Positions 7,457 to 49,915 of a stretch of 64,000 nucleotides of DNA are shown one piece after another. Each line of letters starts with the position of its first letter. The first letter of the stretch is position 1. The notes below the pieces were generated by a model that saw only the letters and a list, made by a program, of their open reading frames with translations, was not told the DNA's origin and searched no databases. This DNA comes from an uncultured Methanoregulaceae archaeon. GTDB lineage: Archaea; Halobacteriota; Methanomicrobia; Methanomicrobiales; Methanospirillaceae. The translations under genes were made by a program, and so were the position numbers. The stretch is taken from positions 800,001 to 864,000 of the forward strand of contig OY969564.1 in the NCBI GenBank assembly GCA_963701095.1, written 5' to 3'.

Positions 7457-7921
7457 TTGACCAAAAAGAAACCCGCCCGGAAAAAGAAGAAAATGGGAGG
7501 GCAATCCGTTTACGAACCCGATTTTCACCCGGTAAAGGCAGGAGAACTTGCCCTGATGGGATTAACCGATGCGCAGATGGCAGCTGTCTTTGGCATAGGT
7601 GAAACTACCCTGAACCGATGGAAAAAACGCTATCCCGATTTTCTTGCATCCCTTAAAGGAGGAAAAGAGCAGGCGGACGCTCCGGTAGTCAAATCCCTGT
7701 ACCAACGGGCACTTGGTTATACCCTCATTGAAAAGAAGATGATCCTGAATCCCGACGGCAGCACCCGTAAAGAGGTCACGGAAAAAGAAATTGCACCGGA
7801 TGTAATCGCGTGTATGTTCTGGCTCAAGAACCGGCAGTCCAAGGACTGGCGAGACAAGCACGACGTTTCGCATACCGGGGATATCATCCTGCACTTTGAC
7901 CGGGAGGATGAGGGCCGGTGA
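7457..7921 (+). CDS. terS: Terminase small subunit
   Basis: HTH (GLTDAQMAAVFGIGETTLNRWKKRYPDF), SLYQRALGY, PDVIACMFWLKNR..WRDK; overlaps terL start. Confidence 0.85.
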   Translation: MTKKKPARKKKKMGGQSVYEPDFHPVKAGELALMGLTDAQMAAVFGIGETTLNRWKKRYPDFLASLKGGKEQADAPVVKSLYQRALGYTLIEKKMILNPDGSTRKEVTEKEIAPDVIACMFWLKNRQSKDWRDKHDVSHTGDIILHFDREDEGR

Positions 7922-9276
7922 CCCTTCCCAAAACGCCGGACCAGAAAAAGGCGCTGGCGTTACTCAACGGCCCGTACAAGTGGGTCCTCCTGCATGGCGG
8001 CAGCCGGTCGGGGAAGACGTTTATTATCGTGCGGCAGATCATCATCCGGGCGCTCGAATCCCCGGGATTCCGGCATGTCATTTTCCGGCTCAGGTTCAAC
8101 CATATCAAGCAGTCCATTTTCATGGAAACGCTGCCGGAACTGTTCAAGAAAGATCCGCAGTTAGCATTGATCCGGGACAAGGTCGTATGGAACCGGTCGG
8201 ACTATTTTATCACCCTGCCAAACGGTTCCGAGATATGGATGGGCGGCCTGGACGATAAAGAACGCACCGAGAAGGTGCTCGGCAAAGAATACGCCACGAT
8301 CTACTTCAACGAAAGCAGCCAGATCCCGTACTCGTCCGTCACTATTGCCCAGACCCGGTTAGCCCAGAACGTACCGAAGATTGCGAACAAGTTCTATTTT
8401 GACTGCAACCCGCCGACAAAAAGCCACTGGCTGTACTCGCTTTTCTTTCTGGGTATCGACCCCGAGACGAAAACAGCCCTCGCCCGGCCTGACCTGTACG
8501 CAGAACAGCGGATGAACCCCGACGGCAACCGGGCAAACCTTCCCGCCGATTATATCGAAACCGTCCTGAACGCTTTGCCGGAGAGAAAACGGAAGCGGTT
8601 CCGGGATGGCGAATGGCTGGAGGATGTCGAAGGCGCCCTCTGGAAACGTGAGATCATTGATGCCGCCCGGGTGGTCCGGATACCGTCTGACCTGACCTAT
8701 GTTGATGTGAGCGTCGACCCCGCCGTTACGGCTAAACCGGGCAGCAACAGTACCGGGATTATTGTTACCGCCGTTGATTCCCGCGGCCATTATTATGTGT
8801 TAGCTGACCGCACCCAGGAACGGGCTTCACCGAAGATCTGGGGGACGGCTGCGGTTACTGCCTATAACGAGTTCGCTGCCGATGCGATGATCGGCGAAGT
8901 CAACAACGGCGGGGATCTGGTTGAGAGGAATATCAAGGTTATCGATCCCCGGATCAATTTCCGGGCGGTCCATGCCACCCGGGGTAAGATCCTCCGGGCG
9001 GAACCTGTCGCCGCACTCTACGAGAAAGGCATCGTGCACCATGTCGGCGAGTTTCCGGAACTGGAGGAGCAGATGTGCAGTTTTGCGCCGCTGATCCAGC
9101 ACGAACAGGACTCGCCGGACAGGCTGGACGCGCTGGTCTGGGGAATAACCGACCTGATCGAGAAGGCAAAGCCGGGGATGAAGATTCCGTTGTCGATGCT
9201 TTCCGGCGGAACCTACGGCCGACCAGATTGTGACAACAAGTTCTACGGCAGGGACCGTTCGGAATTCGGCCTCTGA
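7918..9276 (+). CDS. terL: Terminase large subunit
   Basis: Walker A GGSRSGKT, Walker B IYFNE, DCNP, nuclease motifs VSVDPA and SPDRLDALVW. Confidence 0.93.
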   Translation: MTLPKTPDQKKALALLNGPYKWVLLHGGSRSGKTFIIVRQIIIRALESPGFRHVIFRLRFNHIKQSIFMETLPELFKKDPQLALIRDKVVWNRSDYFITLPNGSEIWMGGLDDKERTEKVLGKEYATIYFNESSQIPYSSVTIAQTRLAQNVPKIANKFYFDCNPPTKSHWLYSLFFLGIDPETKTALARPDLYAEQRMNPDGNRANLPADYIETVLNALPERKRKRFRDGEWLEDVEGALWKREIIDAARVVRIPSDLTYVDVSVDPAVTAKPGSNSTGIIVTAVDSRGHYYVLADRTQERASPKIWGTAAVTAYNEFAADAMIGEVNNGGDLVERNIKVIDPRINFRAVHATRGKILRAEPVAALYEKGIVHHVGEFPELEEQMCSFAPLIQHEQDSPDRLDALVWGITDLIEKAKPGMKIPLSMLSGGTYGRPDCDNKFYGRDRSEFGL

Positions 9277-9289
9277 TTGAGGATTCACT

Positions 9290-10756
9290 ATGAGCAGGAA
9301 ACAAAAACGACAATTCCAAAAACCCTCTGCTTCACCGGCACAGGGAAGCGAAGTATACGCCGGTTCCCTTACGGCGGGATTCAAGGGCTTCGCTACGCCC
9401 CGGATTGACACTCTTTTGATTGCCCGGTACGAACAGAACGCCGTGCTTGCCGATCCCGTACGGAACCTGAAACGGCTGATGTTCAAGGACGAGCCGACGT
9501 ATACGGTCTACGATCCCAAAGGCGAGGAAGACGCCGGACTGTCACAAGCGGCTAAAAACCTCGGTCGGTCTTTGGATTTGTTTGCGAAAGCCCAGTGGTG
9601 TTTCCATGACCGGGTGTTTGGCGGGTGTTCGGTCTTCTCCTGCGGCTGGGGGAACATTCCCGTCGAGGTTGGACAGAAAACCTTTATGATGAAGGTTCCT
9701 ACCGAGTTCCGGCACCTTCCCTGGAACTCGTTCTGGCAGCAGCCGCCGGGCTACATGACGACCTATAACCCGATTATGCCGGGGATTGTGGTTGACCCGC
9801 TGATGGTCGTCCATGTGTTCCAGGCAGTGGACCAGTTTGTGGATCTCGGCCGGGTTGGTGGTACGCCTTCGGGGCAGTACCATCTGGTCGAGATCTGGCC
9901 CCGGCACCCGAAAGAGGGGACGAACGAGGCTGCGGCTCTTGCTACGTGGCTTGCAAACCCTTCGCTTGGTACGCGTCCCACGCTGACCGGCCCGACGTGT
10001 TTTAAGATTATTAAGGATCCCTCTGCCCAGGATCCGTCAGGTTTACCGGATTGTCTGCCGCTTGTGCCACTGGTAACGATGTACGACCATGCGAACCAGG
10101 CAGAAAACCAGCGTATCGGCCGGGTGGGTTCCCCGGTGATTTTCCCGAAGGTAGACAGGCTTACTGCTGACAATACCGAGTACGCCCAGGCAATGATGCA
10201 GAAATGGGGTAAGGACACGGTGTTTCTCTGCAGTTCGGATGGGGTTTACGAGTTTCTTGATCCGCATATCCATGACAATGCCTCTGCCTTGGAACGCATG
10301 ACGTATCTCAAGGACATGATCACGGCCTATTTCAACCCGGCGACGCCGCTGAAACAGGCGACCGGCGGCAGTTCGATAGGCCGCAATGATTCCGGTGCGG
10401 CTGATATGCTGAACGGCTACATCAACAATACCCTCGCATGGATTGAAGACGGGTTCGAGGATGTGTTCAACGAGTGGCTTGACCTCAACGGGTTCTCTAA
10501 ATATTATTGTACGATTGAGTTCCCGCGGCAGTCGAACCGCAACGATGTCGAGATTACGAATACGTTGAACATGCTCGCGAACCACGGCGCTGTGTCACCC
10601 AATGATTTGCGACAGAACGCTCCTGGATTGAATTTACCTCGACTTGATGATCCGGCCTATGACTTGCCGGTACCGGCGACGCAGAATCCGGGGAGTGGTG
10701 TACCGGTGCCGCCCGGGAGTGTGCCGGTGGGGAATGTTGGCCGGGGTGAGGATTGA
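9290..10756 (+). CDS. Putative portal protein
   Basis: 488 aa immediately after terL; size and position. Confidence 0.7.
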   Translation: MSRKQKRQFQKPSASPAQGSEVYAGSLTAGFKGFATPRIDTLLIARYEQNAVLADPVRNLKRLMFKDEPTYTVYDPKGEEDAGLSQAAKNLGRSLDLFAKAQWCFHDRVFGGCSVFSCGWGNIPVEVGQKTFMMKVPTEFRHLPWNSFWQQPPGYMTTYNPIMPGIVVDPLMVVHVFQAVDQFVDLGRVGGTPSGQYHLVEIWPRHPKEGTNEAAALATWLANPSLGTRPTLTGPTCFKIIKDPSAQDPSGLPDCLPLVPLVTMYDHANQAENQRIGRVGSPVIFPKVDRLTADNTEYAQAMMQKWGKDTVFLCSSDGVYEFLDPHIHDNASALERMTYLKDMITAYFNPATPLKQATGGSSIGRNDSGAADMLNGYINNTLAWIEDGFEDVFNEWLDLNGFSKYYCTIEFPRQSNRNDVEITNTLNMLANHGAVSPNDLRQNAPGLNLPRLDDPAYDLPVPATQNPGSGVPVPPGSVPVGNVGRGED

Positions 10757-12397: not shown

Positions 12398-13685
12398 TTT
12401 TGATCCTCATATCTCTGTTGAAAAGATATCACACGCGAAAGATGGTGATTATTTCATCAAACAGATTGAAATCGAACATTTACGGCAGAAAATCCAAACA
12501 CCATTAAAGATCCTCTCCGGAAACGGGATCACTGAACAAGACATCTGCACTATTCCGGGTCTCCCTTCACAACCATTCATAGAATACCAGAAGTTTGTAT
12601 CTAGTATACGCAGCTGGGTTGCTCTGCATACCCTTCTCACGGAGAAATCAAGTTCAGAACGAGTTCAGGGCCTTGATTCGTTTTTCAATATCAAAAAGAG
12701 GCCGTGGGAATCCGCATTGACAACCCTTTCCCTCGTATTCCCGAAAAATCCGTTTATTTCCTTCTCGGCCGGTATTGATGAAACGAGAAAAACTTTTCCC
12801 GGTCTCGACGAAAACAGTTATATCTGTCTTCTCGACTATATCCATTCGGCATCGAAAGCATTTGTGTTGTGCCCTGATGTCCGACTTGAGAAACGTGATG
12901 ACATTTCCACGGCGGGATATTTATCTTTTGTTGATCAGAGCATCAAAATTCTCAAAGACCGGAACAGCAAGCCGATTTTTGCCCCTCTGCATATAGAACT
13001 TTCAAAAAAGAATCTCGAAGAAGTTCTCACTCATTACAAAACACAAGGATACTCAAATATATGGATAAATTTCGATGCGAAATCTTGCCATGGAATGTAT
13101 GCTTCCCGATTGAGAACCATCATTCACCTTATCGATAAAATTCTTGAAAATCCGGATGCTACCCTGTATTTCTCACATATCAAAAAGGAGATTCTGCCTA
13201 ATATCATGGCTGATAAAGCGCCGGCATCAGACATCCTCACTCAATTCCATGGAGCGGATTTCATCGGAACAGACCGCGAGCCATGGCATCCGGTTCAAAC
13301 TGACTGGAACAACGATGACGCCATGCGTGAACTAGCGAGCAAACACAATTTCGAATCCGTAGAAGAATACAAAACAGCCCATGCACTCCACAAACACCGG
13401 ATCTTCGATCCCGAATCTTACTATTACCGGAATCTCGATCACTACCCGCAGAAACTTCCTATCGCCACTCCTACGCTTTTACGTGACAACGCAGTTAATC
13501 AGTTCATGAATAGCACCTTGATGCATTTCGAAGTCGAAAAAGCAAAGAAATCAATCGGTGAGACGCAATCTGTGAAAAAGTACCTCAAGGGCAAGGAAGC
13601 ATTCCAGGAGAATCCCGGCCTTATGGGAGACATTGTCATCCAGAAGCTGCAGTCGGGGCTCGTGGATTTTTTGGGAAATTTGTGA
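12384..13685 (+). CDS. tRNA-guanine transglycosylase (TGT)-like TIM-barrel protein
   Basis: IQTP near N-terminus, LCPD, KPIFAPL, GADFIG recall the TGT fold; no CxCxxC zinc motif; ATG 12384 overlaps PIN gene end. Confidence 0.45.
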   Translation: MSTRDFDPHISVEKISHAKDGDYFIKQIEIEHLRQKIQTPLKILSGNGITEQDICTIPGLPSQPFIEYQKFVSSIRSWVALHTLLTEKSSSERVQGLDSFFNIKKRPWESALTTLSLVFPKNPFISFSAGIDETRKTFPGLDENSYICLLDYIHSASKAFVLCPDVRLEKRDDISTAGYLSFVDQSIKILKDRNSKPIFAPLHIELSKKNLEEVLTHYKTQGYSNIWINFDAKSCHGMYASRLRTIIHLIDKILENPDATLYFSHIKKEILPNIMADKAPASDILTQFHGADFIGTDREPWHPVQTDWNNDDAMRELASKHNFESVEEYKTAHALHKHRIFDPESYYYRNLDHYPQKLPIATPTLLRDNAVNQFMNSTLMHFEVEKAKKSIGETQSVKKYLKGKEAFQENPGLMGDIVIQKLQSGLVDFLGNL

Positions 13686-13825
13686 AATAAATTACTTCAT
13701 AGAGATGGATTCCCTCCCGGACAGAATCCATGACCTCGACAAGCTCCACGGCAGACCGGTTGTCTTCTGATAGGTACTCTTTGAGAAGAAGAAGGAGTAA
13801 CTGGTGGTGATTATCTTCAGAGCCG

Positions 13826-16800
13826 TTATTTTACATATGGACAAGAACCGCGCTTTTTTACTTTATTGCGGTTGAATCCCGGGGGGGTTGGTTTAAATCT
13901 GTCATCATCCGTTGATGCAAGTGGATGGGATACAAGTTGAGCTGGATAGTCTAATGATTGAAATTTTCTTAATTTTCCAATGTTTAATTCCGCAGTCAAA
14001 ATTGTATTATCATCGCCTCCTGATACGCGAAGTATATCCATTCTATCTTTTCTAGTAGGTTGAACGATCCTTGAATCTCCGAATTCTGAACAATTTACTT
14101 GGATGACATAGCAATGTAAATCCTTCACAACAGATTCCACTATCGAAGAAAAGTAATTTGTATCTTTATTTAATACACAAGCTATGAGTAAATCCAATTC
14201 TGATCTGAAAATGGCTCTGTGTTTAATATCAGAAACTTCATAGCAATTATAAATTGAGAATTGGCAGCCTCTCCACTTAAAAAGGTCGTATCTCGAACAT
14301 TTGTTTTCAGGAATCACTAATTTTTGTTCTTTTAAGTTCTCAATCTCTCTTGGTGCAAAATGATTTTTACATCGAATCGAGAGGCAACATGTCTTATATT
14401 TTTCCTTATTTTTTACGGGAAGAGCCGACACAATAAAATTATTTGCAACGCTCTCTTCTTTTTTAACTATCCAATATTCCATCCCGAAGATTAATGCCAT
14501 CTGATGATTACGTGCATATTTGACTAAAAAAGGCAACCATCGATATGGGATAGATAATTCTGGGAGTACAAGAAGGTCACAGCTTCGTTTTTTTGCTTGG
14601 TTAATAATTGAAAATAATTCTTTTTGACGTTTAAAAGTCAGATTAGGTTTTTCATTTTGATGATAACTTCTATTGACATCATCGTCAGCTATTTTGATAT
14701 TCGCCACACCCACCTTAATTTTTCCGGTCGGCTTCTCTGAATGCATTGAATATTTTTTTGGCACACAATGCTCAATTACTTCTATAATATCGTCATGATC
14801 AGAATAGGACAATTCCTTATTTTTCCTAATCGATATCGGAAAATTTTTATTGACGTGAGAAATCTCATTATAGTCTTCTTCAAGAGAATCTAATTTGATT
14901 TTATCTCCATGCAAAACTTGCTTGAGAAATTGAAAAAGGAAATATTCATCAAAATGAATGAATCTGGGGGATAATTCAAGTTTTTTCAGATTTAATTTAA
15001 ACGATTTTTCCGTAAACCTAGTCTCAAATCTATCCCACTCAATAAGGGATGATTCATAATTTGTATAATTAATCAAAGGATATGCAACGTAATTATGTTT
15101 GATAAGATTAGATTGTCTGAATTTTTTTGCATAATTACTGATTTTTTCAGACTGAGAATGAGAATCTCTAGCAAATGAATAACGTCGAAAAGATTCTTCG
15201 TTATGCTTTTCAAGATAAATATCCTTATCATTTCCTAGGAGACCAACGGGAATAGAAATTGCAATTAGTAGATATTCAAAAAGATTATTTTTTAGTTTTT
15301 TAAGTATTCCTTCATTAATTTGAGGGGTATTTTTGATTCCACAATCTTGATTTTTGATATTTTCCTCTGGGAAAAATTTTGTAATCTTAAGAATTGTTTC
15401 CTGAACATCGAAGAAAAATCTAGCTCCCTCTTTTTCTTGATTTGTCAATATTGTGAAAGAGAACAGTTTCTCCCATGTTTTACAAAAAGCAACGAAATTT
15501 TTTCCTTTGTAAAACTTAAACAACTGATCTGAAATTTTCTTTAAATCCTTATCATCAATTTCACTCTGATTTAAACCCGTAATTATATTTGTTAAATTCT
15601 TTGAGAATTCGGTAATATTCTCTACAATTCCAATAATATTTCTCCATTTGTTCGTTGATCCATCAAACAAAATATTGTAAGACTTTCTCGTTCACGTAAT
15701 ATTGCAGATTATCATCGGGTAAGAAAAAGAACGCACTTGCATTGTCATCTATTTTTTTCTTAAATGAATCTAACAACGCTTGGGATTGATCAGCTAAAAA
15801 GAAATGTAGAATCAATTTTTTCTCTTGAATTTGTAGCATGTCATCGCTAACAAGAAAATATGATTTCTTTTTTGGATCATAATTAAAAATTTCAGTCTTG
15901 CAAAAAAAATTATTCATAAAATTATAAATTTTATTATCCGGTTCAATTATTGGATCTCTCATAACTATAAGTATATCATCAACATACCTACCGTAATATT
16001 CCGGCTTCACCACTTTCAAAATTTTTTCATCCAAATCTTTCAGATGCCAGTTGCAAAGTAAACTTGATGAGGCTAACCCAATTGGCAATGGTAGAATATT
16101 ATTTGGAATGTGATTATGCGAATGACGAAATATCTCTCGAATACTTTTTTGATATTGCTGATGAATTCTTTCTAAAATATCGGTTAGTTTTATAGCGAAT
16201 TCTAACTCGTTGAAATCTCTTATTTTCCTTTTTAAGACCTTGCGGATATTATCGAAATCCGTATTAATGCAATAAAAACATTGCTTTAAGTCTAATGAAA
16301 GAATTGCAACATTCTCTTTATCAATATTAAGAATATTTTCTGCAGTTTTTAGAGCATTATTCCTCCAATCCTGGTATTGTGTATTATACAGTTTGAAAAT
16401 GTGGCTGCTGTGATCTTCGGATCTGAACAGACTGTCATTTAATCTGGATGCGTAACAGGATTTTGATAGTTCAGATTCTAGTTTAACACCCGCTTTCATT
16501 AACCAGATGACACTAATTAAGTGTAATTCAATGGGGGCATCAATGAAAAAATTTACACCCTCTAGATAGTATTCTTCAGAAGATTTCTGATTTGTTAAAA
16601 AATGTTCGTCGTGGTTTTTTGTTTTATTCTTTGAATCCTCCCTTTTTTTATCCTCTTGTGTTTTTACGGATTTTGGGAGTAAATTGTACCCAATTTTTTC
16701 AATATATGGATCTAAAATTGTGATATCGTTTTGTGAATTATCTTTTAAGGTATCAATTATTGAAGCAAAATTTATTAGTTTCTCTTGAAATTCCTCTGAG

Positions 16801-16907
16801 CATTCAAAATCGGCTAATTTTTTAATTTGAAATAAATTCAATGTTTCAAAATAAACCGTCTGTTTGAGTTTTTTATATGCGACATTTACTAAATCAGTTG
16901 AATCCAT
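13826..16907 (-). CDS. Reverse transcriptase-nitrilase fusion (DRT1/UG1/UG5-like defence RT); frameshift near 15685
   Basis: RT motifs SLDLKQCFY, LPIGLASS, YGRYVDDILI; nitrilase-fold motifs LVLPELSIP, KNHFAPRE, YNCYE; removing one A in GAGAAAGTC fuses the two ORFs (KSYNILFDGSTNK). Confidence 0.85.
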
Positions 16908-17099
16908 TCTAGCCTTCTAGAAGATAAAATGAAATTTTATTATATATAAATTAGGTACTATCGTATCAAAATTAAACTAGTTAGGATATTCGCAATTGAG
17001 TTAACGGAGAAAGTTACACTCCATTCCGGGTTTGTCCTATCCTCAATTGGTTTTATTAGCCCTTAGCCTTTTCAGTCGAAGTCAAATGCATAATTCTTA

Positions 17100-17960
17100 T
17101 TAATGATTTAGAATTTTTTCCGGGCAGACCTCTGCATACTTACAACTCATACACTCCCTTTGCGAAGGCCGTGCCGGGAAATTCCCGAATTCGTAACTCG
17201 TGTTCATCGCCGCAAACTCACGGAGGATCATTTCCTGCACATTGTGTAACTGATCCTCATAGAAGGCGTAGGGTTTCGTTACGCCGGTTTTCAGGTAAAC
17301 AAGTTCTGTGCCAATATTATCGATACTCATCTTGTAGTATTCTTTTGCCCAGAGCACATATGCCATCATCTGAAGTTCCGTTTCGTACTCATCATCGTCC
17401 CTGCCGGTCTTCCAGTCCGTGAGGATGAGAGTGCTTTCAGGCATCCTCCCGACAAAATCAACCTTGACTGTTACCTCGACATCCTCAATATAGAAATGAT
17501 CATACTGCTCATGCCTTAGGCACCCCCGATTCTCATAGGCTGGCCATTTTCCGAAAAATGTCTGCAGGCATGTCTTTCCGTTCTCGTAGATATATGTAAA
17601 GAAAGTGCTGGGGATCTTCTCGCCGTTGTGGTATTCGGTGAAGGTCTCGCCGCCGATATTTTCGTACAGCGAAACTTTTTTCGAGAATGCATCTAGTGCC
17701 TCGGCAAGATCAATCGGCTTGTTCTCGCAATGGAGCTGGATCTGCTGGTCGATGATATCGTGGATGAGCTGTCCCTGAACGACAAATTTGGACGTGAAGT
17801 TCTTGAGCCACCGGATTTTATCCGGATCAACGACCACCTCACTTTTCACATACGGTGCGATGTACTCGTAATAATATTGCCTCTGGCACCGGTTCCAAAC
17901 CCTGTGTTTGGTAAACGACCACGTGTTGATCTTGAAGAAAAAGGGATCGAGATCCGGCAT
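17100..17960 (-). CDS. PD-(D/E)XK nuclease, Cas4/AddB-like with four Cys
   Basis: WSFT..CQRQYYY, GQLIH, KVDF, LTDWKTG, QMMAY, CMSCKYAEVC. Confidence 0.85.
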   Translation of the reverse strand: MPDLDPFFFKINTWSFTKHRVWNRCQRQYYYEYIAPYVKSEVVVDPDKIRWLKNFTSKFVVQGQLIHDIIDQQIQLHCENKPIDLAEALDAFSKKVSLYENIGGETFTEYHNGEKIPSTFFTYIYENGKTCLQTFFGKWPAYENRGCLRHEQYDHFYIEDVEVTVKVDFVGRMPESTLILTDWKTGRDDDEYETELQMMAYVLWAKEYYKMSIDNIGTELVYLKTGVTKPYAFYEDQLHNVQEMILREFAAMNTSYEFGNFPARPSQRECMSCKYAEVCPEKILNH

Positions 17961-18203
17961 ATGGTTCTGTTGCAAGGGAATCCCGAAATATGTTTCCTTT
18001 AAAGGGTCTAGTGGTTCTGTTAACTTAGTCAGGGATCGGATATTTTATTAGGAGTTGGAAAATTTGATAATCCCATAACAAGTTGACGGAGCCTTAGGAA
18101 CGATGATTGGGTTGGCGGTAAAATAAATCCCAATATCTTATTCAAATCATTAAACAATAAGTTTATTTTGTTATTTTCCCTTCATCTGAATAACAGATAT
18201 TAT

Positions 18204-35848: not shown

Positions 35849-37642
35849 GAAGCTGGCGCTATCACCGTCCGGTTAAATCTGGATGCGTCCGGGATGCAGG
35901 GCGGTATCTCCAGCCTCAACCAGGGCATAACCGGCGTTGCTGCACAGTTCGATGTCCTCCAGTATGCGGCATCGGCCGTGTTCGGGTACGTCGAACAGGG
36001 ATTCAGTGATACCGTCGGTACTGCCATTGCGTACTCTGACCAGATGCAGCACGTCTCTGATGTAACCGGCATGAGTGCTGAATCTGCGCAGAAATGGAAC
36101 GCCGCCAATATCTCGGTTGGCGGTTCCCTGGATTCGATGCTCTCTTCGCTCCAGATGGTACAGGGTAAGATCGCCGACACAACCACCGCTGGCAATACCT
36201 ACCGGAAAACCCTGGACGATCTGGGCATCGCGTACAAAGATGTCAACGGCAATTATCTCGACGCCGATACCCTCCAGAAAAACATCCTTGAAAGCCTCAG
36301 CAAAGTAACCGATGCCACCCAGCGGGACTCGGATGCCCGGCTTATCTATGGCCGGGGATGGGCAAGCAATGCCGAACTTATCACGAACGCCACTAAAGCC
36401 CTCCAGACCTATAACGCGACCCCGGCGCCATTCTCCGACGACCAGATAGCCGCTGCCCACAACATGGGAATCGAGCTTGACGAGTTCAATGCCAAACTCT
36501 CCATTACCCAGACCACCCTTGGCATGGAACTGTTACCATCGGTAAACACCTTGGTAACCACATTCAGTTCGGCTTTCAATGAGGACAGCCCGGTCATCAC
36601 CTTTTTCTCATGGCTTGATGGAGCGATTGAAGATTCCGTCGAAGGGTTCGCAAAACTCGTTGGCGGTATCGAAGCCGGCACCATCGCCGTCGCGGATATT
36701 ACCAGCGGGAAAGGACTTGCCCAGGCAACGGCAGATTTCCAGGCCCAGGAAAACAAGACCACCGCTTACATCACCAACCTCCACGGTCAGTTCGATCTCT
36801 CAAAAGAGGCGATGGCTCAAACCTCATCGCCCGCCGAAGCCGCAAGTACCCCTGCCGCCACAACGCCGTCAGATACCACGCCTGCCAAAGCGGCAAAGAG
36901 TACCAAAACCACCACACCAAAAACTGGCTCCGGGTGGGACGATGCCGCCATTGGTCCACCGGGTTCCGAAATGAACCAGTTCATGATGCAGGCAGAGGCA
37001 GCGGGGCAATCCTATAGCGATGCCCTTGACCTCTGGGCCGGAGAAGGCCAGGGTACCCCGGCAAACATTGCGTTCCTGCAGCAGTTCCAGGCCGGACAGG
37101 CAAACCAGGGCATGAATGAGCGGGCAGCCGCAGATTCCGGTAGCACGAGTACAACCACCCCGGCCAGCACGACAAAGACCGCCGATGCCCCGAGCCAGTA
37201 CGATACCCAGCTCAAAGCCGCCCAGAAATTTTACAGCGACCTGCAGGCACTGGAGACCACGCAGCTTACGGCCTTAAACAAGATCGAACAGACGTACTGG
37301 ACAAACGTTACCCAGATGGCTCAGGCAGCGCTTGCCGACTGGCAGAGCATCGCCACCCAGATCTCCAGTATCATTGCGTACGAGAATACAATAACGGCGA
37401 AAAACGGGGTGGCACAGTCCCAACCTTTGGCTGCCCAGACCGTCACCGGTTCTTCCATCAGCACCGCGAACCCAAACACGTCGATAACCGCAGGAAGTCC
37501 CGGTGGAAATACAGCGCCATCCGCTCCGGCGATAACCGTCAACGTCACCGCTCCCTCAACCGACGCCGGCGATATCGTCAACGCTGCAAGGAACGCCCTC
37601 CAGGTAGCCGGTAACAGTGTATCGGCAGGGAGCCTGTACTGA
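35846..37642 (+). CDS. Tape measure protein
   Basis: GAITVRLNLDAS N-terminus, Ala/Thr-rich helical, follows chaperones. Confidence 0.8.
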   Translation: MEAGAITVRLNLDASGMQGGISSLNQGITGVAAQFDVLQYAASAVFGYVEQGFSDTVGTAIAYSDQMQHVSDVTGMSAESAQKWNAANISVGGSLDSMLSSLQMVQGKIADTTTAGNTYRKTLDDLGIAYKDVNGNYLDADTLQKNILESLSKVTDATQRDSDARLIYGRGWASNAELITNATKALQTYNATPAPFSDDQIAAAHNMGIELDEFNAKLSITQTTLGMELLPSVNTLVTTFSSAFNEDSPVITFFSWLDGAIEDSVEGFAKLVGGIEAGTIAVADITSGKGLAQATADFQAQENKTTAYITNLHGQFDLSKEAMAQTSSPAEAASTPAATTPSDTTPAKAAKSTKTTTPKTGSGWDDAAIGPPGSEMNQFMMQAEAAGQSYSDALDLWAGEGQGTPANIAFLQQFQAGQANQGMNERAAADSGSTSTTTPASTTKTADAPSQYDTQLKAAQKFYSDLQALETTQLTALNKIEQTYWTNVTQMAQAALADWQSIATQISSIIAYENTITAKNGVAQSQPLAAQTVTGSSISTANPNTSITAGSPGGNTAPSAPAITVNVTAPSTDAGDIVNAARNALQVAGNSVSAGSLY

Positions 37643-38523
37643 TGTATTTTACCTGGACGCCGCCGGGAGGCTCGCCGGGCCTGACCTTCTCCGGAAGTGC
37701 CCCGGATTACCGGCTGCTCAAGGGATACGACGGCCTTGAGGCAATGGCCAGTGTCGTCATGACCGCGAAATCCCTGTATCTGGACGGGGAATTTATAATC
37801 GCTACCCCGTGGCTGGACGACCGGTCAATCACCATCCCGCTCATGATTATCTCCACCGACGGCACTCTCCCCACCCTCCAGGCCGAAGTCCTCACGCTGG
37901 TTTCTGCCTTAAATCCGAAAAATGGCATCGGAACTCTGACTTTCTACAACGATGCCGGGGCGGCCTATGCCATCAATTGCGTCAACGATACCGGTTCCCC
38001 GGCCATGGATACCAACGTCCGGGGGCTGACGTACTGGCAGTGCACCCTCAAGTTCAAGGCATACGATCCAACGTGGTACAACCCGGTCGCCGGGACAAAC
38101 CCGTTCCAGACCTTCTATAACGGGTGGTCATATCCCCGCAGTTATCCCGAAAGTTACGGGATGGCAAACACGACTCTGGGATGCACCAACAACGGCAACA
38201 CGCCCACATGGTTTACGGCCGTGGTGACCGGCCCTGTGGCCAATCCCGTTATCACGAACCTTGCCACCGGGGAATTCCTCCAGTCAAGCCAGATCCTCTC
38301 GGCGGGGGACACCCTCACCATCAGCACGAAACCCCGGGCATGCACCGCGACCTACACCCCCTCCGGTGGCAGCCCAATAAACGCCATGAAAACAATGTCG
38401 CTCAACAGCACCTTTTTCCTGCTTCCTTCCGGGGTAACCGCGATCACCTACGCTTCGAGCCTGAACATCCAGAGCGGATCCACTATGACCATTACCTGGA
38501 ACGACCGGTGGGCGGCGATCTAA
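37642..38523 (+). CDS. Distal tail (Dit-like) protein
   Basis: LKFKAYDPTWY, NNGNTPT..GPVANPVITN, FFLLPSG. Confidence 0.8.
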   Translation: MYFTWTPPGGSPGLTFSGSAPDYRLLKGYDGLEAMASVVMTAKSLYLDGEFIIATPWLDDRSITIPLMIISTDGTLPTLQAEVLTLVSALNPKNGIGTLTFYNDAGAAYAINCVNDTGSPAMDTNVRGLTYWQCTLKFKAYDPTWYNPVAGTNPFQTFYNGWSYPRSYPESYGMANTTLGCTNNGNTPTWFTAVVTGPVANPVITNLATGEFLQSSQILSAGDTLTISTKPRACTATYTPSGGSPINAMKTMSLNSTFFLLPSGVTAITYASSLNIQSGSTMTITWNDRWAAI

Positions 38524-38541: not shown

Positions 38542-40870
38542 ATGCCCCTCTGGGTCTTTGACCCGACCTTAAACGCCATCGGCATCATCGACGGGTACCA
38601 GTACCTGTCCTGGACGCGGGACTTCCGGGGCGTCGGTGCGATGAAATTAGAGGTAGCCAAAGGTCTCGCCCGCGACAACCTGGGGAATTCCCTGGTCCAG
38701 CCGGGGAACTTCTTTGGCCTGTACCGGAACGGCTGGTGGCGGATAGCCCGGATCACGCAGGGAAGCATTGCGTGGAAAGCGGACGACACCACGAATTCAG
38801 ACCTCTGGACGATTACCTGCGCTGACGGCAAAGGTATTCTCAACCAGCGGCTGTGCCTTACCGACACAACGACCGGCACCGGATACAATTCCCTTGCCAC
38901 CGATGCGGAGACGGTCATCCGGACACTGATTACCGAAGAGATGATGGCCAATGCTAATCCCGACCGCAACATCCCCCAGCTCGTCCTTGAGACAATCAAC
39001 CAAAGCCGTGGCGGGACCGTCACGATTGACGCCCGGTTTGACTATGTTATGGATACGATCACGGAGGTACTCAACCAGAGCGGGTTTCTCGGCCTGGAAG
39101 TCCGGATGAACCCCGCCGTAACGCCGCCAACGCTTGTCCCGACCATGATCGTCGGCACCGACCGCACCCAGTCCGTGTTTTTCACCCCGAAGTTCTCCAA
39201 CGTCCGGGAACTGGACTATTCCTTCGATATTTCTAAGTCCCGGAACGCGGCTCTCGTGGCCGTTCCGGTACCGGCGCCGCACGGACACAGTCCTGGGTAA
39301 CCGTCGATAATTCCTTCTACCCGATGGGACGCCTTGGTTTCTCAACCACAGTCTGTTCTCTTGCAGACTGCGGGAACGGGATCCTGGTCTTCGGTGCCAA
39401 TGACGGGTTCATCTACCGGAGCACCACCAACGGCAGTACGTGGACGCAGATCACCGGGCTGGACTCCGGATCCGTTTCCGCACTCCTGTTCGTCAACAAC
39501 ATGGTTATCGCAGGAACCTCCCCGAACGCGAAACTCTGGGTATCGTATGACCTCGGCCTGACGTGGACACTTCTGGCAACGCTTCTTACCCAGGATGGAT
39601 CGACCACCATCAGCTGCCTTGCCTGCGACGGCCGGCCCGATGTGCTCACGACCACAGTAACCGCTACCACGGGTATTAACGACAGCCCGGGCATGATCAA
39701 CGATAGCGAAACGGTGGGCTGGACGGGTGCCATCAATATCTATGCCGGCACTGGCGGAAGCGGCAAAGGGACCGCCTGGATGGCGAACCTGAATTCCCTC
39801 TCGTCGTGGTCAAGCCTCGGTGCTCTCACCGGCGGCGATACGGCTGTGAGCGCCATGATCTATGCCGGCGTAGCCGGTGCCAACGGTGCCCCCACGTGGT
39901 CAACGCACGTCACCACCGATTCCAATCCCATCCCCGCATGCCCCCGGGGTGTATGGCCGCCGCGGGAAGCTCGGGAAACCTGTACTGGTTCGGGCAGGTA
40001 CTGGCCGGGATCGATGCGGTCTACCTGCAGGAGGGGCCGCAGAGCGTTGGCTACCAGACGGCGGTATGGGGGCCGTTGCAATGGAACCTCATTTACACCT
40101 TTCCCGGGGTGACGGCTGTACCGGTGCTTCTCGCAGCAGCGAACGGCGATGTCCTTGCTGGCTGTGCACCCGGCGGCGAGCTCTTCCGGTGTTCGGGGGG
40201 TCTTGTGTCCTGCCAGAACCTGATCAACCCTAACCAGTGGGCGTACGTGACCCGGCTTGGTACCGGGAAGCTGACGGTCAGCTGCATGGTTGACGGCGGG
40301 CAGGGGCTGTTGTATGCCGGGGTCAGCGGCGGTACCAATGCCCAGGTGTACCGGAGCCTGGATTACGGGGCTACCTGGGTATCGCTCGGGAACGTAGGGA
40401 CGGAAACCGGGGTCTTTGTGCTCAACCTATCGCCGACGGGGTACCTGGTGCTGGGCACATCTCCTTCCGGCGCCATCTACCAGGCCATGAACGTCAGCCT
40501 TGGTAAAATCCCGACCGGCATGAACCGTTCGGAAATCCTGGTGGACGCTTCCGACGCCCAGAGCGCCGGCACTATCACGGCACAGGGAGCCCAGACGATC
40601 ACCGATCTCGCGGAAGTGGATACCCTTACCTGTATCCTCCAGCCGGGAAGCGATACGTTTGTTTACGGGACGGATTTTGATCTCGGCGATATGGTCACCG
40701 TCGTGTACCCGGGCATCGTGCAGAAAAGCGCCCGGATCCTGACGATCCTTGAAGAATATTCCTTAACTGACGGCGAACAGGACACGATCACGCTCGGGAG
40801 CACCGGTACCGATCTGGTCAGTATCGTCAAGAAAGCGAACAAAGCAAACACGAAAGCCAGGAGGAAATGA
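38542..40870 (+). CDS. Tail tip/hub protein (ReqiPepy6 Gp37-like) with inserted Asp-box/BNR region; frameshifts near 39260 and 39950
   Basis: GIIDGYQYLSWTRDFRGVG N-terminus; YGTDFDLGDMVTV C-terminus; SxDxGxTW repeats between. Confidence 0.7.
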
Positions 40871-46294: not shown

Positions 46295-46542
46295 TCACCC
46301 GATTCAGATCATTTCAGTTATAGTATTTAATTATTTATATTCTACACAATTGAAATTTTACAATGCTATTAAAATTTTTAATGTGATTGCTACGAATAAT
46401 GTGAAACTAAACTTGTACCCGGTGCCGATCACTTTCACTCTCCGTATGGCCGGATCCTTATCCACATCAGTGCAGCAGGGATCCGGTGCTATGCACATCG
46501 AGATCCTCGAGCACCCGTACCATGACACTCAGGAGAAGGATC

Positions 46543-48495
46543 GTGTGGATCCTTGACTCCGCGTACCGGGACCGTGGTATCGATCTCTGGATTAAGGACG
46601 GACCAGTAACAAAAACCCATTACGATTACCGGCCGCCTTTTTACGTCCACTTCCACGACCCTCACGTTCATCAGGAGATGATCGAAGCACTGGAAGAGCG
46701 GCATGATGCGGAAGAGTGCGCCATCAAAACCGTCTTTGGCGAACTCCCCGGGTATGCAGTTACCGCAGGCCGGGATGTGGCCGAAGCGATAGAACGTCAG
46801 GCACAATTCGATGTCGATATCTTCAACGTTGATGTACGCAGGGACCAGCGGTTCATGGCCGAACGTGGGATCTGTCCGTGTATGGGAAAAGGGGATGACC
46901 GGTTTTCCCCGGAAATCGTACACAATCTTACCGTAATGGAGATTGAGATCCAGGGCAACCCGGCACTCTCCTCGCAGTTCACGGAAATTGAAATAAAAGG
47001 AATCCACACGGAACGGCTCACCGGTGAGAACCATGAAGTCCTCGCTGAACTCTTCGGCCTCGTCAATTCGCTTGACCCTGATGTCATCCTCATGCCGGAT
47101 GCCGATACCTGGATGCCGAAGATCCGGAAACTGGCACAACAATATGATCTGGTCATGCCTTTCTCGCGGAACGGCAAGTACCGGCAGATGGACGCCCGAT
47201 CGTACTGGAGTTACGGCAGGATGGAACACAAGGAATCTGCGCTTATTCCCGATGGGCGTATCCTGATCGATACCGAACAGTCGTTCGTGTACCGGGAGGG
47301 TGGTCTGGATGCAGTCCTCATGGCCGCCCGGCTTACAGGACTCTCGCCGAACTTAGCGTCCCGGTTCACGCCCGGAACCCTCATCAGCAGTGACGAGGTC
47401 TACGAAGCAGTAAAACGTGGGATTGCAGTGCCGTTCCGCAAAAGGGATCCGGAGCAGAGCCGTAAGCTCTCAGTTCTCCAGACCGCTGACCGGGGAGGTA
47501 TGATGTTCCAGCCAGAGCCAGGGACATTTGAGAATGTCGAGGAGATCGATTATACATCCATGTATCCCTCCATCATTGTAAAATCAAACCTCTCGCCGGA
47601 GACGGTCGGGCATCAGGAACGTGCGGGATTCCTTCCTGCGGTGCTCAAGCCGCTGCTCGAACTCCGTGTCAAAACCAAGCAGCTCAAGAAGACCGATCCA
47701 CGATTTGCCGGTACTGATGCAATTCTCAAGTGGATGCTCGTCACCTGTTTCGGGTACACGGGTTACAAGAATGCGAAGTTCGGGAGAATAGAGGTGCATG
47801 AGGGGATCACCGGCCGTTCCCGGGAAATCCTGATACAAACCAAAGAGATCGCCGAAAAGATGAATTTCCGGGTACTGCATGGGATCGTAGATTGTCTCTG
47901 GGTGCAGGGATCTCCGATCAAAGCACTCAGGGAACGGGTCGAGCGTGAAACTGATCTGCTCCTTGAAATTGACCACTTCGACTGGATCGTTTTTCTGCCT
48001 CTCGCGGATGGTTTTGGTGCCTATAACCGGTATTATGGCAGGCAACCGGATGGTAGTATCAAGGTCCGGGGAATTGCCGCTCGGAAACATGACACGCCAG
48101 AGTACATCCGGGAGATGCAACGCCGGATGCTGGATGTCATGGCCCGGGCAAAAACGATCGCTGAACTCAAAGTGACACAGGATGAAGTCACAGCAATTTA
48201 CCGGGAAACGATAAACAGACTGCCATCAGCGGACCCAAAGGAAATGATGATCAACCGCCGGATTAGCCGGCTCACGTATGCGCACCGGTGCATTGAAGGC
48301 GCAGCAGTGCAGGCATACCGGGATAACAAGATAGAGATCGCACCCGGTATGAAGATCCAGTACGTGGTGACCGATGCCCGGCGGTACAAGGTGGAACCTT
48401 CATGGTGCGCATCATCGTTTGATGTCGGATATTACCGGGAATTGATCGATAAGGCATATGGCGAGATCACGTTCGCATTTTCTCAGGCAGGATAA
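46543..48495 (+). CDS. Family B DNA polymerase, PolB2-like
   Basis: [30 protein letters not shown] in place of YGDTDS; GTG start after AGGAG. Confidence 0.85.
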
Positions 48496-48569
48496 TATAA
48501 TCTGAGGTTGGGTGGTTTCGAACCCATTACCTCAAAACCCTGATATTTATTGCACACAAATGTGACTGC

Positions 48570-48728
48570 ATGACAATCCAAAGTGAGCAAACTACCCTCC
48601 CATTTGAGCAAAATGTCCACCCCTTAAATGTTACAATGAGTGATCTGAAGCAGTTTGAAGAACTCACAGGTCTCCCCGGAATAGCAAAACAAATGATTCG
48701 AGAAAAAATCGTAAAGGTTAAAGATTGA
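48570..48728 (+). CDS. Small hypothetical protein (52 aa) next to tRNA
   Basis: MTIQSEQTTLPF..FEELTGLPGIAKQMIREK; below the ORF track cutoff. Confidence 0.35.
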   Translation: MTIQSEQTTLPFEQNVHPLNVTMSDLKQFEELTGLPGIAKQMIREKIVKVKD

Positions 48729-48759
48729 TACAAAAAGAGTGAATATCCTTTTTAATTCA

Positions 48760-48833
48760 AGCCTATGGCGAGATTTGAACTCGCGACTTCTTCCTTACCA
48801 AGGAAGCACACTGCCGGGCTGTGTCACATAGGC
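48760..48833 (-). tRNA. tRNA-Thr(GGT), complete
   Basis: GCCTATG/CATAGGC acceptor stem, ACAC/GTGT D-stem, CTTCC-TTGGTAA-GGAAG anticodon arm, TTCAAAT T-loop, U73. Confidence 0.9.
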
Positions 48834-49043
48834 AATTGCTTTTTCATTTTTGGTTTTTCTTCTATTTATGCTAAGGAGGAACTCATTTCCACGACGTCTT
48901 TACCAAGGAAGCACACTGCCGGGCTGTGTCACATAGGCAATTGCTTTTTCATTTTTGGTTTTTCTTCTATTTATGCTAAGGAGGAACTCATTTCCACGAC
49001 GTCTTTACCAAGGAGGTACTCTGCCGGGCTGAGTCACTTAGGC
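48795..49043. repeat. 105-bp tandem repeat of tRNA-Thr 5' half plus 66-bp spacer (two copies plus a divergent third half-tRNA); probable attachment site
   Basis: TTACCAAGGA recurs at 48795, 48900 and 49005. Confidence 0.9.
49005..49043 (-). pseudogene. 5' half of a different tRNA-Thr(GGT) allele, broken just after the anticodon loop
   Basis: GCCTAAGTGACTCAGCCCGGCAGAGTACCTCCTTGGTAA followed by non-tRNA spacer. Confidence 0.8.
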
Positions 49044-49201
49044 GTGTTTCTTCTACATCCTGCTCCTGTGAGGAATCAATTGGTTTTTACCGGAACATAA
49101 TACCGGCTTTAATCGCACAGGCAGGTTGCCTAGATACATTGTCGGTGAATATTATAAAATATTGCGGAGACTCTCTGGATTTCCCGGAGTTTACGCTCTA
49201 T

Positions 49202-49915
49202 TCAGAGCATCCGTTCCAGCATATGCATACTTGCGACCGCACCTGCGAAGTCTTCAACCTCAATTACCGGGGATCCGCCACTTTTTTTAACGGCACTCAT
49301 GACGGGTGAAAAATCGATAGTGCCCCTGCCAACAGCCCAGTGTGAATCGGCAGAGCTATCATTGTCATGCAGATGGTAGTGCCGGGCAGGGATGGAAAGA
49401 AATGATGCCAGGCAGTGATTCTGGTGCGCATGCCCTACATCGAGGGTAAAACCATAACCTTCGATCAAGTGGAGCTCATCTGGTGTTTTCAGGAAGAAAT
49501 ATTCCCAGTCCCCCATGTTCTCGACCGAAAACGATACACCGTATTCTTGTGCTGCGGCAGAAAGGTGCCTAAGCGATACCGCAAGCTGTTGTGCTGCCTG
49601 CGCTCGTTCCTCAGGCCACGCAAAGTACCCGGGGTGTACGACAACTTCCGCCCCTACTTCCGCTGCGATGGCAAAACATTCCTCCATCACCACAACACTT
49701 CCCCGCCGGATAGGTTCGAGCAGGCTTGCAAGATTCGTCCCCCGGCAGGGAGCATGGATGGAGAAGGTACAGGAGTAGGATAACAGCGGTTCAGCACTGC
49801 TAAGGAAATGGAGACCTTCATCCATCACTTCGATTGATCCTGTTACGTTGGAGATCCTTTCCAATGCTACCGGAAGGGGTTCGTGGTGGAGGCAGAGCGT
49901 GGAGATGCCAATCAT
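49202..49915 (-). CDS. Sugar phosphate isomerase/epimerase (AP endonuclease 2 TIM barrel)
   Basis: SIHAP, VVVHPG, VENM, LDVGHAH, HLHDN..DSH. Confidence 0.85.
   Translation of the reverse strand: MIGISTLCLHHEPLPVALERISNVTGSIEVMDEGLHFLSSAEPLLSYSCTFSIHAPCRGTNLASLLEPIRRGSVVVMEECFAIAAEVGAEVVVHPGYFAWPEERAQAAQQLAVSLRHLSAAAQEYGVSFSVENMGDWEYFFLKTPDELHLIEGYGFTLDVGHAHQNHCLASFLSIPARHYHLHDNDSSADSHWAVGRGTIDFSPVMSAVKKSGGSPVIEVEDFAGAVASMHMLERML

Follow-up and report, generated by a model that had tools for sequence, protein, structure and literature searches.

Within a single genus of methanogens, tRNA-targeted integration recurs in a variant form in which the host gene is broken and a foreign gene takes over. 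It is described here from a window of 64,000 nucleotides, bases 800001–864000 of a single 2.63-Mb contig with 48% G+C (genome G000). The host is a methanogen, and its genome contains mcrA; the runs containing the window DNA are soil, peat, and freshwater metagenomes. The locus is probably the product of a virus-like element of about 62 kb which breaks its target and replaces it, and which is equipped with a palindromic att arm and its own complete tRNA-Thr(GGU). By means of its tyrosine integrase, the ~62-kb element would enter allele A, the one tRNA-Thr(GGU) gene of the host, at its anticodon loop. Its attP would lack a tRNA 3′ half, and would instead lead from the right arm of the palindrome through a TATA-like box to a complete allele B. 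Integration would then strand the host 5′ half behind the host promoter and leave the host 3′ half 62 kb away by the integrase, while the decoding of ACC and ACU would pass to the element's own gene B. Exact excision would rebuild A; if that end of the element were lost in any other way, the cell would forfeit its sole tRNA-Thr(GGU). This reading is built on the anatomy of the locus, on halves that match each other, on an allele still intact in relatives, and on a spacer that moves together with the tRNA; from these we infer the free attP, the choice of strand exchange, promoter use, and the expression of B.

Read in the direction of the tRNA, the locus is made up of the following features (window coordinates):

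49202–49915, minus strand: xylose isomerase-like TIM barrel gene of the host flank (Pfam), syntenic in relatives
49123–49167, minus strand: conserved host promoter of the tRNA-Thr(GGT) locus, CCGCAAT.TTTTATA plus 30 nt
49044–49122, minus strand: relic of an earlier round, a decayed 5′ half (49122–49084) followed by a 40-nt old spacer (49083–49044)
49043–49005, minus strand: 5′ half of allele A, the resident host tRNA-Thr(GGT), displaced and cut after the anticodon loop
49004–48939, minus strand: distal copy of the 66-nt spacer, the attL arm on the element side
48938–48900, minus strand: extra 5′ half of allele B, matching that of the complete B at 39/39 positions and ending at TTGGTAA
48899–48834, minus strand: tRNA-proximal copy of the 66-nt spacer, with the same sequence as the distal one
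48833–48760, minus strand: complete tRNA-Thr(GGT), allele B (ARAGORN; Rfam tRNA model, 63.3 bits)
48570–48728, plus strand: 52-aa ORF between the polymerase gene and tRNA B, inside the 243 nt that travel with the cassette

An earlier note on this DNA had already described the minus-strand order of A half, 66-nt spacer, B half, spacer, and complete B; the sequence, the repeats, and the ARAGORN and Rfam calls agree with it in every detail, and both halves are indeed seen to break after TTGGTAA. The A half is composed of the acceptor strand GCCTAAG, the D stem ACTC/GAGT, the anticodon-stem strand CCTCC, and the loop TTGGTAA, and the B half of GCCTATG, ACAC/GTGT, CTTCC, and a terminal TTGGTAA. Altogether the two alleles differ at five positions in the 5′ half and two in the 3′ half. 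In the complete allele B, every acceptor and anticodon-stem pair forms. The junction between host and element falls inside the TTGGTAA preceding the distal spacer. A repeat finder reports a 105-nt tandem repeat (48792–48896 and 48897–49001, 99% identity) and a 42-nt family present in three copies at 105-nt spacing (100, 98, and 86% identity); an exact head-to-tail copy of 105 nt cannot have arisen by chance.

Neither 5′ half with its spacer is called as a tRNA by ARAGORN or Rfam, the only call in the region being 48760–48833. Since the A half and the spacer do not make a tRNA, the host gene is not restored at the crossover; this upholds the earlier suggestion that the element destroys the resident gene and supplies a complete isoacceptor of its own. 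The complete gene starts 66 nt past the A half when one unit is counted, and 171 nt past it in the G000 assembly. It was also suspected that the host might depend on B, and ARAGORN finds no other Thr(GGT) gene in G000, with or without the intron search (53 and 48 tRNA genes, respectively). The 52-aa ORF has no Pfam or PHROG match. Two other ORFs overlapping the region were judged spurious: one of 68 aa (48527–48733, minus strand), with no family match and a composition that looks implausible by eye, and one of 111 aa (48765–49100, plus strand), also with no family match.

The missing part of allele A lies outside the window. A BLAST search of the region against the genome retrieves an orphan 3′ half at genome positions 786606–786647 on the minus strand (L001 6606–6647), at the far boundary, where it had been predicted, and by the tyrosine integrase. 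It is 42 nt long, 40/42 identical to the 3′ part of B, and reads TTGGTAA followed by GGAGG…CTTAGGC, the exact partner of the A 5′ half. It lies downstream in the tRNA orientation, 62.4 kb from its partner. The core TTGGTAA thereby occurs twice, at attL directly behind the A 5′ half and at attR ahead of the A 3′ half. When joined, the two A halves fold as a cloverleaf in which all acceptor and anticodon-stem pairs form. The hybrid of A 5′ and B 3′ halves has one mismatch in each of these two stems, and the reverse hybrid has a single T-T mismatch in the acceptor stem. A matching orphan for B (GGAAG…CATAGGC), also predicted, is absent from the G000 genome by BLAST.

The intact form of allele A is found in relatives. 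Among 108 genomes of the same genus (107 relatives plus G000), the 3′-half pattern is matched in 84, with two matches only in G000, G088, and G123. At the same locus, G020 (L014) and G104 (L078) have an intact tRNA identical to the rebuilt allele A, as had been anticipated, and it stands behind the same promoter and relic as in G000; G104 even has the promoter variant seen in G000. Next to tRNA-Thr in G104, G020, G101, and G088, synteny of the upstream flank is kept at 74–81% identity. Allele A was therefore the resident gene of the lineage, split by the insert. The downstream flank beyond the orphan half, which encodes a histidine kinase, is not beside the tRNA in these four genomes, so the empty site is demonstrated only on the upstream side. 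Other species of the genus have B-like alleles as their normal host gene, with 2–4 differences (the G073 gene has two, and the same CTTCC/GGAAG stem), but the nearest relatives do not. The objection that B might simply be the normal gene in relatives thus applies to other species and fails for the closest ones.

The DNA between the two A halves contains the genes of a virus:

Genome 786648–849004 (the part inside the window being 1–49004), no strand assigned: inserted element of about 62.4 kb, starting 13.35 kb before the window
L001 6708–7850, plus strand: tyrosine integrase, 380 aa (PF00589, 1.3e-8, 35.2 bits against a cut-off of 27.1)
7918–9276, in the element: large terminase (Pfam)
9290–10756, in the element: portal (Pfam)
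37642–38523, 38542–39300, and 39806–40870, in the element: three siphovirus tail proteins (Pfam)
46486–48495, in the element: family B DNA polymerase (Pfam)

With terminase, portal, and tail genes (PF04466/PF03237/PF17289, PF06074, PF22768, PF14594), the element appears from its gene content to be a provirus of a tailed archaeal virus (Caudoviricetes); no major capsid protein was identified in it. Its cargo includes GmrSD and HEPN proteins, a PD-(D/E)XK nuclease, a GGDEF protein, and a reverse transcriptase adjoining a carbon-nitrogen hydrolase (all by Pfam). G+C is patchy across the element, from 0.30 to 0.60, and the element may be composite. The predicted integrase gene starts 60 nt from the orphan half, on the opposite strand. 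The protein reaches 8.7e-12 against the archaeal XerA model, below the cut-off for that model; the XerA and XerC matches are weak, both below their cut-offs. It has no match among solved structures and no close relative in the 107 same-genus genomes, where the best identity is 30%. Among viral contigs, no relative of the integrase protein or of the B 5′-half pattern was found, and the contigs of the metagenome runs show no attP junction of a free or circular form. It is thus from the integrated state that the cassette would appear to travel inside the 62-kb virus.

The two ends of the element have complementary arms. The last 32 nt before the attR core are complementary to the first 33 nt of the spacer, with a folding energy of −19.5 kcal/mol; the mean of 1000 mononucleotide shuffles is −9.5, and only two of them reach the observed value. 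The element in G088 has the same att geometry (−17.1 kcal/mol, reached by 4/1000 shuffles). Because of this complementarity of the arms, attP would be an imperfect palindrome of about 71 nt centred on TTGGTAA. The spacer had been described as A-rich with a TATA-like ATAAATA; this box is present, as ATAAATA(G), but the first ~31 nt of the spacer (nt 1–31, 48899–48869) are better read as the P′ (right) arm of the predicted attP. The same 31 nt were also considered as a decayed tRNA 3′ half, a candidate given up as the resemblance is loose and by eye, whereas the palindromic arm is backed by two elements. The TATA-like box ATAAATAG occupies nt 31–38 of the spacer (48869–48862) and ends 28 nt before tRNA B. 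In the six genomes where the host promoter abuts the gene, its TTTTATA ends 28–30 nt before the tRNA, and many G000 tRNA genes have an A/T box at a similar distance (by eye). The spacer does not have the proximal ACAAT..TAGGCA-like box seen by eye before many host tRNA genes, and read-through from the host promoter may therefore drive B.

The same construction is found in an independent metagenome contig, L085, which carries the one-unit form: A half, spacer, and complete B. Its host flank is only 88.5% identical to that of G000 (1336/1510), whereas the A half plus spacer is identical at 105/105 positions, the spacer alone at 66/66, tRNA B at 73/74, and the 243 nt past the tRNA at 241/243, the two sequences being unrelated beyond that point. 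At 88.5% identity, the chance of finding 66 unchanged bases is about 3e-4 by our arithmetic. This contrast in identity indicates that spacer, tRNA, and some 243 nt moved together, recently, into a diverged host. Since the neighbouring DNA is unrelated beyond the 243 nt, the cassette is a module common to different neighbours, and in principle it could move apart from the 62-kb element. The L085 copy of tRNA B has a T-stem mismatch, which is an error or else points to weak selection on this gene. L085 also identifies a single unit as the primary product.

A second case uses other alleles. In G088 the conserved promoter is followed by older material and then by a clean 5′ half of the host gene, which a related spacer of 73 nt separates from a complete new allele with a different acceptor stem. 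The orphan 3′ half matching the displaced half is present on another contig. Beyond the module of half, spacer, and tRNA, nothing is common to the G088 and G000 elements, and the G088 ORFs are uninformative. A further metagenome contig, L084, has a host flank 80.6% identical to that of G000, and contains an A half, a spacer 92% like that of G000, and the complete gene of another allele with A-type acceptor and D stems and a CTTCC/GGAAG anticodon stem.

The 105-nt duplication is a matter of its own. The two-unit form is seen only in the G000 assembly, all other records having one unit or none. The junction of the duplication must lie in the last 10 nt of the half, which include the core, because the middle half is pure B and no difference between the A and B halves is found beyond position 29 of 39. 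This position fits the cutting site of the integrase and suggests a site-specific exchange in the B anticodon loop; slippage does not fit it, and a homologous exchange would be expected elsewhere. The extra unit most plausibly stems from another integrase-type exchange at the same core, within B. Either a second genome would have entered B, followed by homologous collapse of the tandem copies, or there would have been an unequal exchange between attL and B on sister chromosomes. As there is no orphan B 3′ half, no second element is present now.

It is also conceivable that the gene was broken and replaced just as proposed, with one unit as the common state and the second unit as an assembly artefact or a minority variant. 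We consider this unlikely, though it survives better than the other rivals. A contig from X1, a possible source run, has one unit and skips exactly 105 nt, from 48794 to 48900; L085, from another metagenome, has one unit as well; and the two units differ only at the forced junction base, so that nothing marks them as separate copies. The X1 contig is however expected either way, because contigs built from short words collapse exact tandem repeats, and the single 2.63-Mb contig suggests that G000 was assembled from long reads, which rarely add a repeat unit. Copy number also seems to vary in nature: an X5 contig from another study (611 nt, depth 3.7, no mismatches) contains neither unit, skipping 210 nt and joining the host flank directly to B. 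This zero-unit form illustrates a way for a replacement gene to end up directly behind the host promoter. One contig each of X6 and X7, with three other letters apiece, may be one-unit forms. Some parts of the window are not covered in X5–X7, a gap to which we attach no meaning. The earlier note had the replacement happening “apparently twice”; a second event would follow from the position of the duplication junction, while the extra unit may still be an assembly artefact.

The classical scheme fares much worse. A direct repeat in a tRNA gene is the standard signature for delimiting proviruses, and here a 42-nt direct repeat (40/42) does link the 3′ part of B to the orphan half. One could then imagine a virus carrying only the B 3′ half, the upstream halves and spacers being older tandem duplications of the host, produced by slippage or unequal crossing-over and unrelated to the virus. 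This is very improbable. The host gene would have been B 5′ plus A 3′, with its T-T mismatch in the acceptor stem, and the nearest relatives have an intact A exactly at the position of the A half. The spacer, unchanged over 66/66 positions in L085 against a flank at 88.5%, moved with mobile DNA. In G088 the arrangement recurs with two other alleles, and there too the orphan half matches. Slippage, finally, would not put both breaks exactly after the anticodon loop. More generally, an attP made of a 3′ half alone would often give a mismatched hybrid, because the alleles of the genus differ in their acceptor and anticodon stems.

In the split tRNA genes of Nanoarchaeum and Caldivirga, 5′ and 3′ halves lie far apart and have complementary flanks. 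The A halves of G000 share both traits, as the flank complementarity (−19.5 kcal/mol, 2/1000 shuffles; also in G088) and a co-fold into a cloverleaf with a long extended anticodon arm (−59.5 kcal/mol) attest. Yet it is hardly credible that they form a working split gene, with both halves transcribed, paired through their flanks, and trans-spliced as in Nanoarchaeum: a palindromic att site explains the complementarity equally well, the co-fold is a long helix with single-base bulges and no clear 3-4-3 bulge-helix-bulge (by eye), an intact isoacceptor B is present at 48760–48833, displaced 5′ halves decay in relatives, whose genomes keep no partner 3′ half (only 3/108 genomes have two 3′-half matches), and no promoter for the orphan 3′ half was found in G000, the TATA box to its left being placed, in our reading, for the integrase gene.

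How does integration that breaks the host gene and replaces it compare with known systems? According to a 2021 review of archaeal tyrosine recombinases, a partial tRNA copy in attP, running from the crossover to the 3′ end, rebuilds the gene “for all integration events” (PMC8371274), and replacement in G000 contrasts with this textbook rule. Crossover in the anticodon loop is itself an established class, exemplified by the SSV1 integrase in tRNA-Arg and defined among the sublocation classes of Williams (2002), as cited in PMC8371274. Classical integration as described there and the G000 case have in common a recombinase gene beside the att site, a 7-nt anticodon loop as the overlap, flanks with dyad symmetry, a displaced 3′ half at the far end by the integrase, and a gene that exact excision would restore. 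In G000, by contrast, what follows the core in the att site is no tRNA 3′ half, the host gene remains broken, and its function moves to a separate complete gene located 66 nt further in, with its own TATA-like box.

Integrases of the pTN3/TKV4 type use the 5′ half of a tRNA gene as attB (PMC8371274). As in G000, the host 5′ half is displaced and the working tRNA does not depend on it. In the account given in that review, the entire element separates the displaced 5′ half from a recombinant gene (element 5′ plus host 3′), which is expressed from the integrase promoter (PMC8371274). In G000, by contrast, the new gene follows the half at a distance of only 66 nt and is foreign throughout, with a B-type 3′ half, and both host halves are displaced, the 3′ half being 62 kb away.

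One of the nearest cases concerns the same isoacceptor. Caldiarchaeum subterraneum has a heterogeneous tRNA-Thr(GGU) locus at which a complete allele is preceded, further upstream, by a 5′ fragment of another allele, an arrangement attributed to a mobile element (Sugahara et al., 2012; PMC3293823). Unlike in G000, a 1.8-kb recombinase-bearing insert separates fragment and gene. The authors read the locus as a 5′-repeat integration reconstituting the gene, and link it to the origin of introns and split tRNA genes (PMC3293823). The available part of their account describes no matching orphan 3′ half, no self-contained tRNA cassette, and no serial stack of halves. In Thermococcaceae, tRNA fragments are left by restoring integrations, and the related literature, as far as it was available, describes restoring integrations only. 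No element that leaves its target tRNA broken and supplies a complete copy next to its att site was found in the literature searched, although the att tables of PMC8651126 and PMC11705971 could hold similar cases.

If the proposed mechanism is true, a virus would have a reason for carrying a tRNA that is unrelated to codon usage, given the mismatched hybrids that a 3′ half alone would often produce. As the host's only tRNA for ACC and ACU lies inside the insert, sloppy loss of the provirus should be selected against. There is a practical side too: the standard delimitation of proviruses from direct repeats would pick up the 42-nt repeat, take the locus for a classical one, and overlook the mechanism.

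A wider proposal, which we put forward tentatively and at somewhat less than even chances, is that the tRNA-Thr(GGU) of this genus evolves mainly by serial replacement through a portable module of palindromic att arm, promoter, and complete tRNA, carried by a family of elements; dead 5′ halves would record successive invasions, and each integration would be a natural starting point for split tRNA genes. With such a module, an element could enter whichever allele the host has and no mismatched hybrid would result; the cell would come to depend on the end of the element, and the module would outlive the element itself. If so, the stack of dead halves between the conserved promoter and the live gene amounts to a fossil record that can be counted across genomes, and each integration makes a physically split tRNA gene with complementary flanks. 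The fossil halves bear on two old ideas, one of which traces split tRNA genes to mobile elements, while the other sees introns as a protection of tRNA genes against integration.

In G000, the decayed half (49122–49084) begins exactly where a promoter-abutting tRNA would start. A census of 56 loci (54 genomes and two metagenome contigs) finds the promoter motif upstream of the tRNA in 55, abutting it in six and separated from it by 60–319 nt in 49. The gap opens, at the very base expected for a tRNA start, with a tRNA-Thr 5′-half match above the 99th percentile of shuffles in 18 of these 49, and with no recognisable 5′ half in the other 31; related genomes not being independent, the 18 loci stand for fewer events. 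At the position of the decayed half, G104 retains a well-kept one, by eye identical to the 5′ half found in G090, where the gene is intact and abuts the promoter. As the half in G104 is of the G090 type and is decayed in G000, the order of replacement in the G000 line would be from an F-type allele to A and then to B. Downstream of the tRNA, G104 and G020 have 20 kb of ordinary cell genes: nothing is left of the element that brought A except its tRNA and spacer. No observed step accounts for the disappearance of an element whose tRNA stays; a possible route would be the gradual decay of a provirus that cannot afford to lose its tRNA end.

The spacers were compared by scoring against 2000 mononucleotide shuffles. 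The score of the new G000 spacer against that of G088 is reached by 4/2000 shuffles, of G088 against G104 by 2/2000, and of G104 against G003 by 0/2000; for the old G000 spacer against G101 it is also 0/2000. A direct likeness of the new G000 spacer to those of G104, G003, and G017 was rejected (628, 1627, and 607 of 2000 shuffles reach the score). The family link between G000 and G104 is therefore transitive, by way of G088, as the direct score does not rise above the shuffles. A search of genome contigs with a 17-nt degenerate junction pattern returned at least 120 stretches, nearly all bacterial, the pattern being far too unspecific. Six of these loci (five archaeal, plus L166) were checked with ARAGORN: among the matches listed, only L166, which is G104, is relevant, L109 being a natural tRNA and the remaining four having no tRNA.

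Counted over the 108 genomes, 5′ halves number three in G000 and two each in G088, G053, G071, and G123. No orphan 3′ half was found in G053 or G071. At the G071 locus, an F-type half and an A half, with a spacer between them, are followed by an 89-nt spacer and then by a further, different allele. In G053, a decayed half is followed by a clean half, a 74-nt spacer which looks by eye to be of the same family as the others, and a gene with an 18-nt intron at 37/38. This intron falls exactly at the att core.

A further form of the junction comes from X5, a metagenome run from another study, where the fourth record, an independent metagenome contig, joins window positions 48534-48828 to 49039-49354. 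Here the host flank runs directly into tRNA B, the complete replacement gene, with no mismatch on either side of the joint, and just 5 nt of sequence are common to the two sides. This zero-unit form contains neither the half of allele A, the split resident tRNA-Thr(GGT), nor either of the 105-nt units that are made of a B 5' half and a 66-nt spacer.

Unusual copies of tRNA-Thr(GGT) are also found in four genomes of the same genus, and in L085, an independent metagenome contig carrying the one-unit form:

G053:C31, about 71540-71640 (L208 / L211): working gene
G044:C12, about 9990-10063 (L019): gene with mismatched stems
G123:C1, about 396250-396330 (L067): extra degenerate copy
G059:C3, about 172450-172530 (L210): extra degenerate copy
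L085, about 3074-3147: copy of tRNA B

The working gene of G053 is preceded by two dead halves and is itself a replacement. An 18-nt intron interrupts this gene at the canonical 37/38 position, exactly within the att core (the anticodon-loop TTGGTAA), a pattern matched by this genome only among the 108 of the genus that were searched, the one under study included. The position of this intron is relevant to the proposal that tRNA genes are shielded from integration by their introns. In G044, a 5' half with GCCTATG and CCTCC is followed by a 3' half with GGAAG and CACAGGC, leaving both the acceptor stem and the anticodon stem mismatched. This gene looks like a hybrid; either an anticodon-loop exchange or chimeric assembly may have produced it. 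The extra copies in G123 and G059 are full-length and degenerate, lie away from the main locus, and are without the host promoter motif, the one in G123 being directly preceded by another tRNA. Both may be relics of element-borne cassettes. As for tRNA B in L085, its T stem has a T in place of the required G (GCGAT for GCGAG), a change that would disrupt a conserved pair and reflects either decay or an error in sequencing.

When the 60 nt upstream of tRNA genes across the genome under study were compared by eye, many host genes were seen to have in common an A/T box some 30 nt upstream, along with a proximal ACAAT..TAG(G/A)GCA-type box immediately 5' of the gene. The A/T box is also present at the virus-borne tRNA, which lacks the proximal one. 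Downstream of the tRNA lies a conserved motif:

48731-48759, minus strand: motif of type TGAATTAAAAAGTTCAAATCTTTTGG, also 3' of the tRNA in relatives

Motifs of this type follow the tRNA in many genomes of the genus (for example at loci L079, L081, L082 and L064), and are found downstream of both the virus-borne tRNA B and the orphan host half (the displaced 3' half) of G088. Their centre resembles the T arm (AGTTCAAATC). They may be a trace left by a different class of element, one with its crossover in the T-loop.

Other genes of the insert and genome are as follows:

13826-15670: carbon-nitrogen hydrolase protein, adjoining the reverse transcriptase
15663-16907: reverse transcriptase, inside the insert
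17100-17975: PD-(D/E)XK nuclease, adjoining the reverse transcriptase
48570-48728, plus strand: 52-aa ORF flanked by the polymerase gene and the tRNA
L001 (the locus holding the provirus integrase), 12951-14515: GmrSD-N protein beside a RiboL-PSP HEPN protein
G000:C1:2069686-2070225, plus strand: second tyrosine recombinase gene, at another place in the genome under study

The group at 13826-17975 falls within a patch of 0.30-0.38 G+C, and its cargo, like that at L001 12951-14515, is defence-like and part of the insert. The 52-aa ORF, which gave no family match, is kept together with the cassette (spacer, tRNA and the next 243 nt) in L085; because it is small and adjacent to the att site, our guess is that it is a candidate recombination directionality factor. 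The second tyrosine recombinase is 29% identical to the provirus integrase.
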